Program-made: the position numbers and the translations under genes
NCBI GenBank assembly: GCA_022574255.1
Contig: JACZSK010000002.1
Span: 11,199 to 75,198 of the forward strand
Source of the DNA: Pseudomonadota bacterium
Lineage (GTDB): Bacteria; Pseudomonadota; Alphaproteobacteria; Sphingomonadales; SMXR01
Length of the DNA stretch: 64,000 nt
Direction: 5' to 3'
Part shown: piece by piece, positions 7,407 to 49,089 of the stretch
Position numbering within the stretch: position 1 is the first letter of the stretch
Layout: the number at the start of each line of letters is the position of its first letter
Notes under the pieces: generated by a model
Database searches by the model: none
Seen by the model: the letters and a program-made list of their open reading frames with translations, nothing else
Told to the model about the DNA's origin: nothing

Positions 7407-8585
7407 ATGAGGACGCAAGTGGCGATTATTGGCGGCGGTCCGGCCGGGCTGTTGTTATCGCAGTTGCTGCACCTTAAAGGCATCGACAACGTCGTGCTCG
7501 AAAAGCATACGCAGGAGCATGTCCTGGGTCGTATTCGCGCTGGCGTTCTGGAGCAAGTGTGCGTCGACCTGCTGGATGACGCCGGGGTCGGCCAACGTAT
7601 GCATGCTGAAGGGCTGGTCCACGAAGGGTTTGACATTGCCTTCGATGGTCGCCTGGAGCGCGTTGATCTGAGGCGGCTGACCGGTGGTGACGCTGTAATG
7701 GTTTACGGCCAGACCGAATTGACCAAAGATTTGATGGATGTTCTGGCTGCTGCCGACAAAAACCCGGTCTATGAGGCGGAGGATGTCTGCCCCCATGACT
7801 TCGACACAGACCATCCCCGCGTTACCTACCGGAAGGATGGCAGGGAGATAGAGGTTCAGTGTGACTTTATTGCCGGTTGCGACGGTTATCACGGAATCAG
7901 CCGGGCCAGCGCGCCAAAAAACGTACTGCGGGAATTCGAACGGGTTTATCCATTCGGTTGGCTCGGCGTGCTGTCAAATACCCGTCCGGTTTCTGACGAG
8001 TTAATCTATGTGAACAGCGAGCGCGGATTTGCTCTTTGCAGCATGCGTTCGCACGAGATTAGCCGCTGCTATGTGCAGGTCTCGCTGGATGACACGCTGG
8101 AAGCCTGGCCCGATGAGCGCTTCTGGGACGAATTAAAAAGCCGCTTGCCCGAGGCCGTCGCCGATACCTTGGTGACCGGGCCTTCCATAGAGAAGAGCAT
8201 CGCTCCGCTCAGAAGTTTCATAGCCGAGCCGATGCGGTTCGGGCGCATGTTTCTGGCCGGTGATGCAGCGCATATCGTGCCACCCACGGGTGCCAAGGGG
8301 CTGAACCTGGCCGCATCAGATGTACGTATCCTGTCGCAGGCCCTGATCGAATATTATGAAGAAAAGGATGCCGGCCTGTTGGATCGTTATTCGGATTTGG
8401 CGCTGAACCGCGTTTGGAAATCCGAGCGCTTTTCATGGTACATGACCAATCTGTTGCACAAATTCACTGCCGACCCCTTCGATTACAAAATGCAGTTGTC
8501 GGAACTTGACTATCTTTTCAAGTCCGAACACGCCGCTTCGGCGTTAGCGGAAAATTATGTCGGATTGCCCATTGAGGGGCTTTGA
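7407..8585 (+). CDS. pobA: 4-hydroxybenzoate 3-monooxygenase
   Basis: [50 protein letters not shown]... is collinear with PobA, and the ~392-aa length fits. The AAGGAGAG Shine-Dalgarno sequence lies 7 nt before the ATG at 7407. Confidence 0.9.
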
Positions 8586-8609
8586 GGGAGGTTAGTTCTT
8601 GCCCGGTGG

Positions 8610-9398
8610 TCAGATTCCCAGTTTTTGACGCCAGCGCTCGGCTTCCAGGCCACCATCAACAGCAATATTCGCGCCGGTAATCCACGCCGCCGCTTCGGAG
8701 CAAAGAAAGGATACGACGGGTGCTATGTCCCCTGTGGTTCCTGCGCGGCCAATCTCCTCCAGGTCGAGCTTGGCGCGATTCCCGAAAGCATCCATGAAAT
8801 CCTGCAATATGGGTGTCTCAACCGGGCCAGGGCTGACCGAGTTGACCCGGATACCCTTCATTCTCCAAATGCTCGCGGTCACCTTCGTCCAGGCAATCAA
8901 CAGCTCTTTGGAATAAAGATAGCTGAACACATCACTGATATCCTGTTCCCGGCAAAAGGCTTCCAACTCGTCCAGAGATGTCTCCTGCCCCAGTGCCAGG
9001 CCCTTCTTGACGCGCTCGATATCGTCAATCCAGCCGAAACCCGCACCGGATGCCATATTGATGATAGCGCTACCTTCCACCATTTTTTCTGCGGCAAGTT
9101 CAGAGAACCGCCGCAGGCCGAGAAAGTTGACCTTGATGACCCGTGCCCGCCCGGCGCCAGGTGGCAGGCCTGCAATATTGCAAAGCGCATCAATGGCGCC
9201 GGGCAGGTTCGCGGCGGCCGTGTTGATCGAAGAATCATCCAGCAGGTCAAGATGAATGAACTCATCAACATTGCCAGTTTCCCGGGTAATGTCCAAACCA
9301 ATGATCCGCGCGCCCTGCTTTCTCAGCAGTTCGGATGTTTCGGCTCCGATGCCCGATGCTGAGCCGGTTACGACGATAGTCTTACCGTCTAGCGCCAT
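8610..9398 (-). CDS. Short-chain dehydrogenase/reductase (SDR) family oxidoreductase
   Basis: TGSASGIG cofactor motif at the N-terminus; classical SDR length (262 aa). Confidence 0.75.
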   Translation of the reverse strand: MALDGKTIVVTGSASGIGAETSELLRKQGARIIGLDITRETGNVDEFIHLDLLDDSSINTAAANLPGAIDALCNIAGLPPGAGRARVIKVNFLGLRRFSELAAEKMVEGSAIINMASGAGFGWIDDIERVKKGLALGQETSLDELEAFCREQDISDVFSYLYSKELLIAWTKVTASIWRMKGIRVNSVSPGPVETPILQDFMDAFGNRAKLDLEEIGRAGTTGDIAPVVSFLCSEAAAWITGANIAVDGGLEAERWRQKLGI

Positions 9399-9439
9399 TC
9401 TTTAAATTCCTGAGATTGCAGATACATACTGGGAATTTC

Positions 9440-46952: not shown

Positions 46953-47190
46953 TATTTACAGCCTCCCTGGACTCACATCCTACTGCCCCAGCAAAATTGC
47001 AGAGTGTGAGCGACTTCAACACTGTTGGAGACGAGTAAAAAAAAGCCCCGAACACCAACCCTAACACCTTGGGCGCCAATTTATTGCGGCGCCTCATATT
47101 GTTATTTTTTCTGATCGCGGTGCTTCCCGTGTAACTTTATGATACCCCGCAGGCAAACACCGCAACTTAATTACACTGGCAGCCAGAACG

Positions 47191-47262
47191 GTCGTTTGTC
47201 AATGCAAAATAATAGTCGTTTGTCAATGCAAAATAATGGTCGTTTATCAATGCAAAATAATG
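47191..47262. repeat. Three head-to-tail 24-bp direct repeats (GTCGTTTGTCAATGCAAAATAATR)
   Basis: Units at 47191-47214, 47215-47238 and 47239-47262 differ at 1-2 positions only. They lie in the 556-bp gap between the halogenase 4 stop and the TBDR 2 start. Confidence 0.9.
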
Positions 47263-47508
47263 TGGGCACAAGATTTAGCCCTGGAAGATCAGACGGGCCG
47301 TCAAGGTGTATTTCAGCGACTAGCGAAGGAATACGAGATGACGACGCAATGACGTTCGTGGTTACCTAGTTCCCTCTCCCTGATCTGACACTTCTGCCAC
47401 ACGTTCTTGAGGGGCACTTAAGTCGGCGGGACCTGGTGCCGAACCGGCAGGCGGGCCAACCACGTCGTCGAGGATTTCGCGCATCTCCCGCCAGGAACGA
47501 GTCCTGGT

Positions 47509-49089
47509 TTATGAGCCCCGCGCCGGAGCCTTTCGAAAGCCTGTGCTGTAAGCGGTATCGACGAGCGCCCGATGATCGGGCAGGGCGGCCAGCCCGCCAC
47601 GCGCGAGGCTATCCAGCTCCAGCGAGCGTTGTCGCGCTTCCGGCCATCTGCGAAAGCGATGTTCCTGGTCGGCGAGATCGGGAAGGTAATCCATTCCGTA
47701 AAGAACCTGCAGGTGTCCGGCCAGGCCGAAAATGTTTGCATTGGCGGAGAATTCGAGCAGGCCGGGGACGCGGTAGCGCCAGCTTTCCAGTTTGTCCCTC
47801 AGCGTATCGGTCAGTGTTTCATCGCGCTGGTTGTCTATCCAGAAATCGGTGTCTGTGCGGCGGCTCAGCGCATAATGCAGTTTGATGAAGTCGATAATGT
47901 CAACGTAGGAATCATTCATCGCATCGTTAAATTGCTTGGCCGCCAGCGACATCTTCTCGGTCGGCGGAAAATAATCGACCAAATATCTGAGGGACACATC
48001 CAGGATATGGATCCCGGTCGATTCCAGGGGCTCAAGAAAGCCCGCTGACAGCCCTATTGAAACACAGTTTTTGAACCACTGCTGGCGCCTTAGGCCGGTG
48101 CGCATCTTTAGGCGCCGCATTTTGACGTTCGACGCTTGTTCACCGAGATAGCCGGCGAGCACTTCTTCTGCGCGCGCGTCGTCGGTATATCTGCTCGAAT
48201 AGACATATCCTGCACCGCGGCGGTCGCTGAGCGGGATATCCCATATCCAACCGTTTTCCTGCGCGGTGGCGATCGTGAATGGTGGAATCGCCTGCCCCGG
48301 ATCGGTGAACGGAATTTGGCAGGCTATTGCCCGGTCGCAAAAAATCTTATCCGAAAGGCTGTCAAAACCCACGCCCATCGCTTTTTCGATTATGTATGCT
48401 CCGAAACCTGTGCAATCGAGGTACAGGTCGGCGGTAAGTTCTCCATGTTCCTCGGTGTCCAAGGCGGCGATGGAGCCGTCCTCCGCCAGCCGGACATTCT
48501 TGACCGTGCCGACCAGGTGTTCGACTCCGCTTGCACATCCGACCTTTTTCAGCAGCCCGACAAGCAGCCCGGCGTCAAAGTGGTAGGCATACTGCATTGG
48601 TCCGCCGAATTGGAAGCCGTCGGTTTTTTTCGGGCCGCGGCCGGCGTCACAGATTCGTCCTTCGATCATCGAAAAATCAACGAAGCTCTTTCCTATGGAA
48701 TCGCGGGCGATGACCCAATAAGGCGCCATTAACTCCTGCAACTGCTGGCCGAATCGGCCCGCCTCGCCAAAGACATGATAATAACTGTCTGGTCGACCGC
48801 CAGCCTCCCTTCCCAGCCACTGGTCAAACCTGATTCCCAACTTGAAAGTGGCGGAGGTCGCCCGCATGAATTCGGCCTCATCCAGGCCCAGACTGGCGAT
48901 CACGGTCCTGACCGGGGGCACGGTCGCCTCGCCAACACCGACGGTTTCGATTTCACTGGATTCAATCAGCGTGATCCGCGGGCCATCCGGTTGGTCTGAG
49001 CCCAGATTCCGCGCCAGATAGGCAGCGGCAAGCCAACCCGAAGTGCCGCCGCCGACGATGACAATATGCTCGATCCTTGTCAAAAACAT
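47509..49089 (-). CDS. Flavin-dependent halogenase homologue, paralogue 4 (most divergent)
   Basis: Motifs: GGGTSGW, GVGEATVPP, ATSATFKLGIRFDQW, GWIWDIPL, AGFLEPLESTG. Start set at MFLTRIEHIVIVGGG. Confidence 0.8.
   Translation of the reverse strand: MFLTRIEHIVIVGGGTSGWLAAAYLARNLGSDQPDGPRITLIESSEIETVGVGEATVPPVRTVIASLGLDEAEFMRATSATFKLGIRFDQWLGREAGGRPDSYYHVFGEAGRFGQQLQELMAPYWVIARDSIGKSFVDFSMIEGRICDAGRGPKKTDGFQFGGPMQYAYHFDAGLLVGLLKKVGCASGVEHLVGTVKNVRLAEDGSIAALDTEEHGELTADLYLDCTGFGAYIIEKAMGVGFDSLSDKIFCDRAIACQIPFTDPGQAIPPFTIATAQENGWIWDIPLSDRRGAGYVYSSRYTDDARAEEVLAGYLGEQASNVKMRRLKMRTGLRRQQWFKNCVSIGLSAGFLEPLESTGIHILDVSLRYLVDYFPPTEKMSLAAKQFNDAMNDSYVDIIDFIKLHYALSRRTDTDFWIDNQRDETLTDTLRDKLESWRYRVPGLLEFSANANIFGLAGHLQVLYGMDYLPDLADQEHRFRRWPEARQRSLELDSLARGGLAALPDHRALVDTAYSTGFRKAPARGS

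Follow-up and report, generated by a model that had tools for sequence, protein, structure and literature searches.

Do genes for adding halogens and genes for removing them, when they lie beside an aromatic ring-cleavage pathway, belong to one system? The question is raised by a 64,000-nucleotide stretch of DNA (the window; contig JACZSK010000002.1 of assembly GCA_022574255.1) from an uncultured marine proteobacterium, in which a 42 kb span runs from the ATG of pobA (7407) to the ATG of a fourth halogenase gene (49089). An initial annotation had proposed that the region may be specialized for turnover of halogenated, probably brominated, phenolic compounds, and that its halogenase block may supply or remodel them. 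The open reading frame (ORF) listing and profile searches of the window give a dense gene map, and the gene families named in that annotation are present where it had placed them or close by: four flavin-dependent halogenase (FDH) homologues (PF04820, E 1e-130 to 5e-135, motifs intact), a reductive dehalogenase homologue (RdhA), and pobA with a full protocatechuate 4,5-cleavage route and UbiD/UbiX. Their grouping is another matter. The span is probably a mosaic in which three modules were inherited separately (Table 1), and which we divide into A (ring cleavage), B (RdhA) and C (halogenases), and the closest non-self homologues of the encoded proteins come from a class that differs from module to module. 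Most likely, modules A and B make up a route for ortho-halogenated 4-hydroxybenzoates like that encoded by the bhb cluster of Comamonas, with a variant, minimal RdhA and recently assembled. The nearness of module C to RdhA is most likely incidental.

The main new element of the locus is RdhA itself, a member of a minimal clade of ~445 residues. Few aerobic cytosolic reductive dehalogenases have been characterized; they are candidate bioremediation tools and may contribute to marine organobromine turnover. The rdhA start is an ATG behind a GAGGA ribosome-binding site, the same as in homologues. The protein scores 163.2 bits with the TIGR02486 core model (cut-off 160.35) and matches the structures of NpRdhA (4RAS, 6ZXU) at E ~4e-167 and ~60% identity, with only NpRdhA residues 253-686 covered. 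From the published list of catalytic and substrate-pocket residues (PMC10463259), the alignment shows Y426, K488, R552, F291 and S422 of NpRdhA to be kept and M423 to be replaced by Tyr. Two 4Fe-4S motifs are encoded, CGNCHKCARECP at residue 263 and C...CGRCMKTCP within residues 299-320. The N-terminus, MGLFRYKHRAPHLGKYPMET, lacks the RRxFLK motif of a twin-arginine signal, and no ORF resembling the RdhB membrane anchor was identified in the window, with the caveat that the adjoining DUF3179 protein has ~3 transmembrane helices. These matches and absences agree with the non-respiratory type first assigned to it. RdhA is predicted, plausibly, to remove halogens from ortho-halophenols in a cobalamin-dependent manner.

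The protein aligns to the C-terminal core only and lacks the vestigial N-terminal duplication of the cobalamin domain that occupies residues 1-250 of NpRdhA and mimics a dimer partner. This duplication has been described as a trait separating catabolic from respiratory RdhAs (PMC10463259). It is not encoded separately in the window, where the N-domains of six long homologues match only the core gene. Also absent from the 450-residue protein is a fused C-terminal PDOR reductase (there is no 2Fe-2S or FMN domain), which most catabolic RdhAs have and NpRdhA lacks. Of the 120 best database homologues, 28 have fewer than 500 amino acids (aa) and 92 have 600-800 aa. In a neighbor-joining tree rooted with BhbA and built without bootstrap support values, 27 short RdhAs form a monophyletic group, with the long forms as its sister. 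Judged by sequence, RdhA is a genuine, architecturally reduced cytosolic RdhA, in a clade of ~445 residues without the vestigial domain. Exact look-ups of the protein from its TTG start (468 aa) and its M19 start (450 aa) gave no database match; the copies in the database have the start called differently or one to two residues changed (P0241, 454 aa; P0242 and P0247, substituted). Database proteins matching the region carry the NCBI locus tags IID51_00690 to IID51_00765 of a metagenome-assembled genome (MAG).

Because the vestigial domain of NpRdhA mimics a dimer partner and the short form has no such domain, the short RdhA may homodimerize. It would also need a separate electron donor. NpRdhA (Nitratireductor pacificus; PDB 4RAS, 6ZXU-6ZY1) likewise lacks a twin-arginine signal, an RdhB and a fused reductase. 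Unlike NpRdhA, the RdhA of the window has no adjacent ferredoxin or ferredoxin reductase, and a gene for a nitroreductase-family flavoprotein stands in their place. We infer that the nitroreductase is a candidate electron-transfer, electron-supply or cofactor partner of RdhA. Its identification as BluB was ruled out (58 bits against 150), and similarity to iodotyrosine deiodinase is weak and confined to residues 29-94. The second candidate is the DUF3179 protein, for which we sought a solved structural homologue and found none. A three-helix membrane protein beside RdhA recalls the RdhB anchors, and RdhA itself lacks an export signal. The discrete clade of minimal RdhAs thus comes with two candidate electron-supply components. 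It is possible, although we put this forward only tentatively, that the short RdhA acts with the membrane protein DUF3179 and with the nitroreductase as an undescribed aerobic dehalogenase system, which may be membrane-associated and homodimeric.

Module A encodes all seven activities of protocatechuate 4,5-cleavage (LigA, LigB, LigC, LigI, 4-oxalomesaconate (OMA) tautomerase, OMA hydratase and CHA aldolase, where CHA is 4-carboxy-4-hydroxy-2-oxoadipate). We predict that the B12/Fe-S enzyme RdhA would take halogenated compounds of the 4-hydroxybenzoate type and remove the halogens that stand ortho to their hydroxyl group, that PobA would hydroxylate the resulting 4-hydroxybenzoate to protocatechuate, and that LigAB, LigC, LigI, LigU, GalB and LigK would take protocatechuate to pyruvate and oxaloacetate. 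This scheme, with module C as an incidental neighbor, is in our judgment a fairly probable explanation of the locus as a whole.

The closest known parallel is the bhb cluster on plasmid pBHB of Comamonas sp. 7D-2, which functions in the aerobic catabolism of bromoxynil and 3,5-dibromo-4-hydroxybenzoate. It encodes PobA (59%), LigA (52%), LigB (62%), a binding protein and BhbA (49%) in this order, with identities given relative to the window. Its reactions convert bromoxynil to 4-carboxy-2-hydroxymuconate-6-semialdehyde (CHMS), and the characterized catabolic RdhAs all act on ortho-halogenated phenols (PMC10463259). Both loci place a cytosolic RdhA beside a 4-hydroxybenzoate 3-monooxygenase and LigAB (in the window, rdhA lies at 22.1 kb, pobA at 7.4 kb and ligAB at 13.1 kb), and the inferred pathway is alike: dehalogenation, hydroxylation, then cleavage at the 4,5 position. 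The differences lie in architecture and setting. BhbA has 1071 aa and comprises the vestigial domain, core and PDOR reductase, whereas the 450-aa RdhA of the window, 49% identical to it, is core only. The bhb cluster has a nitrilase and a TTT/TRAP binding protein, both lacking in the window, which has instead the nitroreductase, a MarR regulator, DUF3179, UbiD/UbiX, and SSF, SBF and TonB-type transporters. The bhb genes are on an IncP plasmid, whereas the locus described here is apparently chromosomal, an environmental analogue of the Comamonas pathway in an uncultured marine lineage. Another bacterium, Pigmentiphaga kullae H8, reportedly dehalogenates 3-bromo-4-hydroxybenzoate oxidatively. 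For this compound it uses a 4-hydroxybenzoate hydroxylase together with pcaA and pcaB, and the available text of the report names no RdhA for its two clusters (PMC12016517), while the window has an RdhA in addition.

The pairing of RdhA with pobA or lig genes recurs elsewhere. We searched 80 RdhA loci (one genome per GTDB species, flanks of at most 10 kb; loci carry L numbers) with all window proteins and identified it in a Halioglobus-like MAG, two Sneathiella MAGs and another alphaproteobacterial MAG. The Halioglobus-like MAG (L043) carries, on one strand, ligK-ligU-...-ligI-ligA (71%)-ligB (81%)-ligC (80%)-aldo/keto reductase (AKR, 53%)-rdhA. This co-directional array of ~10 kb (1807-11794) combines the whole lig pathway and the AKR with a long-form RdhA, and is a cleaner coupling of RdhA and lig than that of the window. 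In a Sneathiella MAG (L034) pobA (56%) is immediately upstream of rdhA, in L018 pobA is 3.6 kb from rdhA, and in the alphaproteobacterial MAG (L087) the order is rdhA-MetE-like (78%)-pobA (53%). RdhA beside pobA/lig is therefore an arrangement already on record and with several origins, seen in three or four other lineages and in pBHB. The shared accessory genes are informative, too. The AKR homologue of L043 is directly between ligC and rdhA, and the MetE-like homologue of L087 (3486-4595; an unrelated genome) is exactly between rdhA and pobA. That these two members of the block found in the window also adjoin RdhA elsewhere argues for selection rather than accident, and suggests an unrecognized role for the MetE-like protein in this catabolic context.

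The age of the junction between modules A and B can be judged from related contigs. Three of these (L088, L089 and L090) are 99.3-99.9% identical to the window over 31.2-52.9 kb and share the order SBF-TonB-dependent receptor (TBDR)-IS6-amidase-Hal1-3-262 aa ORF-TBDR-Hal4-S9-aldehyde dehydrogenase fragments; they are of the same species and therefore uninformative on conservation. Informative are two sister-species contigs of ~81-85% nucleotide identity, L001 (GCA_044232495.1) and L092 (ERZ26661914). In these the order is aldehyde dehydrogenase-DUF2390-DUF3179-RdhA-nitroreductase-MarR-short-chain dehydrogenase (SDR), with the SSF symporter directly next in L092. Relative to them the window has two extra segments, which flank the SDR gene on either side. 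The first, at 7404-8585, carries pobA, which L092 lacks at this site. The second is an 11.5 kb block (~9.4-20.9 kb) with the lig genes, LysR, the MetE-like gene and AKR. The absence of pobA/lig at this site in the sister species implies that RdhA and ring cleavage were joined recently in evolution, by gain here or loss there. Together with the recurrence described above, this is evidence of repeated, recent assembly of such clusters.

What, then, is RdhA most consistently found with? DUF3179 homologues adjoin it in L001, L092, L008 (67%, directly upstream) and L042 (54%). UbiD copies of 66% identity are beside it in L042 and L040 (3 kb from RdhA in L040). In L042, a Woeseiaceae MAG, module B is syntenic as TBDR-UbiD (66%)/UbiX (64%)-DUF2390-DUF3179 (54%)-TetR-aldehyde dehydrogenase-RdhA. 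The apparent best-conserved partners of RdhA are thus UbiD, UbiX, DUF3179, DUF2390 and the aldehyde dehydrogenase, and not pobA/lig. Unbiased clustering of RdhA neighbors across the 80 loci gave no universal partner, the commonest being an SDR (19 loci) and an ABC ATPase (14 loci). Because the synteny and partners of module B recur in L042, L040 and L008, this module is older than its junction with module A. These partners, the short RdhA architecture and the sister contigs without pobA/lig had not figured in the initial annotation.

Genes for both UbiD and UbiX complete the gene set of a UbiD/UbiX decarboxylase system. The substrate-specific models for UbiD (the VdcC, UbiD and phenylphosphate carboxylase equivalogs) all scored below cut-off. 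Module B holds no extradiol dioxygenase, despite its equivalog match for a 2-hydroxymuconic-semialdehyde dehydrogenase.

These partners support the alternative that RdhA serves the UbiD/UbiX/DUF3179/aldehyde dehydrogenase module on another substrate, such as halophenols or halogenated aromatic acids handled via (de)carboxylation, and that pobA and lig are chance insertions. Synteny of module B extends to distant lineages in which pobA/lig do not accompany it (L042, L040, L001, L092), the sister-species operon runs RdhA-nitroreductase-MarR-SDR and then to the symporter, the aldehyde dehydrogenase belongs to the 2-hydroxymuconic-semialdehyde type, and the residue equivalent to M423 of NpRdhA is Tyr. 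Chance insertion, however, fits poorly with the independent origin of RdhA plus pobA/lig at least three to four times, also in the characterized pBHB, and with an AKR and MetE-like gene that accompany RdhA in L043 and L087 as they do here. We consider this alternative unlikely, and favor the bhb-like route through PobA and the Lig enzymes.

Is module C part of the same route? Its four FDHs all keep the GxGxxG, catalytic Lys, WxWxIP and EPLEST motifs (in PrnA numbering, the catalytic Lys is K79 and the Glu is E346). Among solved structures they are closest to those of tryptophan halogenases and of BrvH and Xcc4156. With the phenolic-type CmlS model, whose cut-off is 900, they reach only 37-53 bits. 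The FDHs are accordingly assigned to the indole/tryptophan-type clade, not to the phenol-brominating type. According to the available text of one study, tryptophan is not accepted by BrvH, an enzyme whose native substrate is given as unknown (PMC7754283). No partner flavin reductase was found in the cassette, the sole flavin-reductase-like gene being the nitroreductase of the RdhA operon, 16 kb off.

A metagenome scan provided 80 FDH loci totaling 832 kb, with flanks of 10 kb. In these, homologues of the second TBDR of the window (TBDR2; 48-49% identity) occur in 23 loci and homologues of the 262 aa ORF (59-63% identity) in 20. Homologues of RdhA, PobA, any Lig protein, UbiD, UbiX, the nitroreductase or the amidase were found within 10 kb of none of the 80. 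UbiD and SBF, which would betray an identical arrangement, were missing beside the FDHs, and the first TBDR (TBDR1) gave one weak match of 25% identity. Conversely, none of 87 RdhA loci has an FDH within 10 kb. The cassette occurs in unrelated settings as Hal-Hal-sulfotransferase-like-TBDR-S9 peptidase (L174) and, in related forms, as TBDR-Hal-Hal-sulfotransferase-dioxygenase-Rieske-GMC (L175, Woeseia) and Hal-TPR-sulfotransferase ... TBDR-S9 (L091, Paremcibacter); an Asp/Arg-hydroxylase-type dioxygenase, TPR-sulfotransferases and an MTHFR-like protein also recur as FDH neighbors. In the window an IS6 element sits between the RdhA/UbiD module and the halogenases. Because it recurs without RdhA, pobA, lig or UbiD, in unrelated contexts, and here lies beyond the IS6 element, module C is an autonomous cassette, widespread among marine proteobacteria.

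Such cassettes have been recognized before. Iyer, Aravind et al. 2010 (PMC2938197) described neighborhoods of TonB receptor and tryptophan halogenase genes and speculated that they might make a halogenated siderophore-like compound. As in those neighborhoods, where the receptor has one to several FDHs beside it and sulfotransferases and 2-oxoglutarate (2OG) dioxygenases are sometimes included, FDHs with an intact Lys adjoin a TonB-dependent receptor in the window; relatives characterized in vitro are BrvH and Xcc4156. Unlike those neighborhoods, the cassette of the window lacks genes for SapC, JmjC and an Asp/Arg-hydroxylase (no Pfam match), and its four FDHs are joined by an S9 peptidase and an amidase. 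A 2OG-dioxygenase family that is common in related FDH loci had no tblastn match in the window. Function should not be read from the nearness of "tryptophan halogenase" genes, which belong to a common TBDR-linked cassette.

The recurrence data also bear on the proposal that the whole region is one system for halogenated phenolics, in which FDHs make or remodel brominated compounds and RdhA, PobA and the Lig enzymes dehalogenate and mineralize them. The proximity is real and is kept in the near-identical contigs L088-L090, the catalytic motifs are intact in all four FDHs, TonB-dependent receptors are present in both modules, and enzymes related to this clade prefer bromide according to the available text of two studies (PMC5945002, PMC7754283). 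Against this stand the lack of any linkage between the two sets of loci, the intact cassette in unrelated contexts, the IS6 at the junction and the tryptophan/indole type of the FDHs. Regulation also appears separate, with a LysR in module A and a MarR and TetR in module B; no shared regulator is present. A single system is decidedly improbable. The first proposal of a region specialized for halogenated phenolics thus holds for RdhA beside pobA/lig, as in pBHB, but not for the halogenase block, for which a role in supplying or remodeling such compounds is unsupported. Likewise, the suggested co-occurrence in other genomes was seen for RdhA with pobA/lig, which recurs independently, but never for RdhA with FDH within 10 kb. 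We give little credence to a functional coupling of halogen addition and removal in one organism, as cryptic halogenation in catabolism or a private bromine cycle. In one such scheme, imported compounds of aromatic or peptide-derived nature would be halogenated for a time by the FDHs, with the sulfotransferase, and the short RdhA would later reductively dehalogenate the phenolic or indolic products before ring cleavage.

Several points weigh against the preferred reading, a recently assembled bhb-like route with module C incidental. Its main weakness is that the simple pathway leaves UbiD, UbiX, DUF3179, the 2-hydroxymuconic-semialdehyde-type dehydrogenase and the nitroreductase unexplained. 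The putative substrate is assigned from homology (60% identity to NpRdhA, with M423 changed to Tyr). The genomic pattern is a minority one, as pobA is found in 3 of the 80 RdhA loci and lig in 1 of 80, and homologues of the short RdhA at 74-78% identity occupy unrelated contexts. In the nearest contigs from other species (L001, L092), neither pobA nor the lig block accompanies the RdhA operon at the site, and the young junction of modules A and B could be accidental. As to module C, the same-species contigs L089 and L090 keep it adjacent to module B, and the 10 kb flanks behind the linkage counts are shorter than the 14.4 kb between rdhA and Hal1 in the window. Finally, that the RdhA homologue is a B12/Fe-S reductase other than a dehalogenase, like QueG of the same superfamily, would fit its missing vestigial domain, a trait held characteristic of catabolic RdhAs (PMC10463259), and the barely reached TIGR02486 cut-off, but is very improbable given 60% identity to NpRdhA over the whole catalytic domain, retention of all named residues except M423, and a QueG model score of 26.7 bits against a cut-off of 200.

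Table 1. Modules and annotated features of the window, with model scores given against their cut-offs and identities given relative to the window protein.
Feature	Position	Strand	Support and remarks
Module A	7.4-20.9 kb		pobA, complete protocatechuate 4,5-cleavage pathway, LysR, MetE-like gene, AKR
Sodium:solute symporter (SSF), conserved left flank	5813..7360	+	PF00474, E 3e-97; 87% identical in L092, abutting SDR there
pobA, 4-hydroxybenzoate 3-monooxygenase	7407..8585	+	TIGR02360, 655 bits vs 539 (equivalog)
SDR	8610..9398	-	Pfam adh_short; ends RdhA-nitroreductase-MarR-SDR array in sister species
ligK, CHA aldolase / oxaloacetate decarboxylase	9440..10135	-	TIGR02798, 367 bits vs 304
GalB-type OMA hydratase, PIG-L fold	10132..10851	-	PDB 5cgz, E 5e-104; PF02585
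ligI, 2-pyrone-4,6-dicarboxylate hydrolase	10865..11728	-	PDB 4d8l, E 3e-73; PF04909
ligU/galD, OMA tautomerase	11740..12834	-	NF033377, 527 bits vs 440
ligA, protocatechuate 4,5-dioxygenase alpha subunit	13116..13511	+	TIGR02792, 216 bits vs 109
ligB, protocatechuate 4,5-dioxygenase beta subunit	13504..14349	+	NF009903, 541 bits vs 317; 81% identical in L043
ligC-type CHMS dehydrogenase	14364..15314	+	PF19858, E 3e-92, GFO_IDH_MocA; 80% identical to lig-linked L043 copy
Dienelactone-hydrolase-family gene (+) and D-2-hydroxyacid dehydrogenase gene (-)	15322..16970	+/-	Inside 11.5 kb block absent from sister species
LysR-type regulator of lig block	17233..18561	+	PF00126, PF03466
MetE-like protein (cobalamin-independent methionine synthase family)	18708..19826	+	372 aa; NF005085 subfamily, 452 bits
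AKR	19895..20881	+	PF00248
Module B	20.9-34.4 kb		RdhA operon (rdhA, nitroreductase, MarR), preceded by DUF3179, DUF2390, aldehyde dehydrogenase, UbiX; alongside, TetR, UbiD, amidohydrolase, SBF transporter, TBDR
MarR-family regulator, last gene of RdhA operon	20904..21359	-	PF12802, PF01047; kept in L001, L092
Nitroreductase-family flavoprotein	21349..22116	-	PF00881; 15 bp downstream of rdhA; 89-90% conserved in L001, L092
rdhA, short NpRdhA-type cytosolic reductive dehalogenase	22132-23484	-	450 aa
DUF3179 protein	23634..24866	-	PF11376; ~3 N-terminal transmembrane helices, then soluble domain
DUF2390 protein	24885..25517	-	PF09523; also in L042 module
Aldehyde dehydrogenase, 2-hydroxymuconic-semialdehyde dehydrogenase type	25420..26907	-	TIGR03216, 757 bits vs 693 (equivalog)
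UbiX flavin prenyltransferase	26904..27488	-	PF02441, E 1e-40; 64% identical copy in L042
TetR-family regulator	27479..28153	-	
UbiD-family (de)carboxylase	28326..29840	+	TIGR00148, 269 bits vs 245; best PDB match HmfF 6h6v, E 8e-56
Amidohydrolase_2 protein and SBF-family transporter	29879..31873	+	Amidohydrolase_2 family includes non-oxidative decarboxylases
TBDR1	31969..34418	-	Gene call in L089
IS6-family insertion sequence	34660..35498	+	PF13610; intact, 23-nt terminal inverted repeats
Module C	36-51.5 kb		Beyond IS6; four FDHs, sulfotransferase-like protein, second TBDR, amidase, S9 peptidase
Amidase	36019..37869	-	PF01425; N-terminus twin-arginine, lipoprotein-like (TRRSVLQG...LSGC); divergent from Hal1
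Hal1, FDH homologue	38016..39644	+	PF04820, E 2.5e-131
Hal2, FDH homologue	39695..41248	+	PF04820, E 5e-135; PDB 9ltb (1e-105), 2pyx, PyrH, PrnA, BrvH
Hal3, FDH homologue	41344..42897	+	PF04820, E 7e-130
Sulfotransferase-like protein, conserved cassette partner	42927..43715	-	262 aa
TBDR2, conserved cassette partner	43827..46952	-	
Hal4, FDH homologue	47509..49089	-	PF04820, E 1.6e-132
Secreted S9 peptidase	49423..51456	-	Recurs beside FDH cassette in L174, L091

Further observations concern individual genes of the cassette. The 262 aa ORF has invariant PKSG[ST]H and RDPYDW motifs, and the best Foldseek matches of its AlphaFold model (pLDDT 71.6) are cytosolic sulfotransferases at a probability of 0.9-0.98, although the matches are weak (E 2e-3, TM 0.4-0.5). 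SapC and JmjC identities were tested for it and rejected; we call it sulfotransferase-like, with moderate structural support only. The amidase is not a conserved cassette member (0 of 80 FDH loci). Its twin-arginine, lipoprotein-like N-terminus and the secreted S9 peptidase suggest that amide or peptide substrates, once brought in by the receptor, are processed in the periplasm. The GC content is 0.52-0.53 at 40000-44000 (Hal2, Hal3 and the sulfotransferase-like gene), compared with ~0.56-0.59 in the RdhA/lig modules, which is weakly consistent with a separate origin of the cassette. The left repeat of the IS6 element is duplicated at 34692. In L089, positions 34586-34820 of the window are missing and the IS6 transposase is cut to 152 aa, so that the element varies within the species.

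In module A, the maximal LysR ORF (17233-18561) has 442 aa and two Pfam HTH_1 stretches. Either its start is called too early or the N-terminus of a second LysR has been fused to it or persists there as a remnant. In the left flank of the window (575-4726) are genes, unrelated to the finding, for an epimerase/dehydratase, for a NosD-like beta-helix protein that has a cytochrome c tail, and for a MauG-like di-haem cytochrome c peroxidase.

To the right of the cassette, 51609-55705 holds fragments of an aldehyde dehydrogenase gene (51609-52355; L089 has them as split products of 225 and 102 aa), several small ORFs without a family match, a tyrosine integrase gene (54223-55440) and a tRNA-Ser(GGA) gene on the minus strand (55616-55705). 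This tRNA was the sole match in an Rfam scan of the window for a cobalamin riboswitch or any other family. A second copy of its 3' end, which would bound an integrase island, was sought in the window with up to 3 mismatches allowed and not found. By its content, the segment looks like the remnant of an integrase island.

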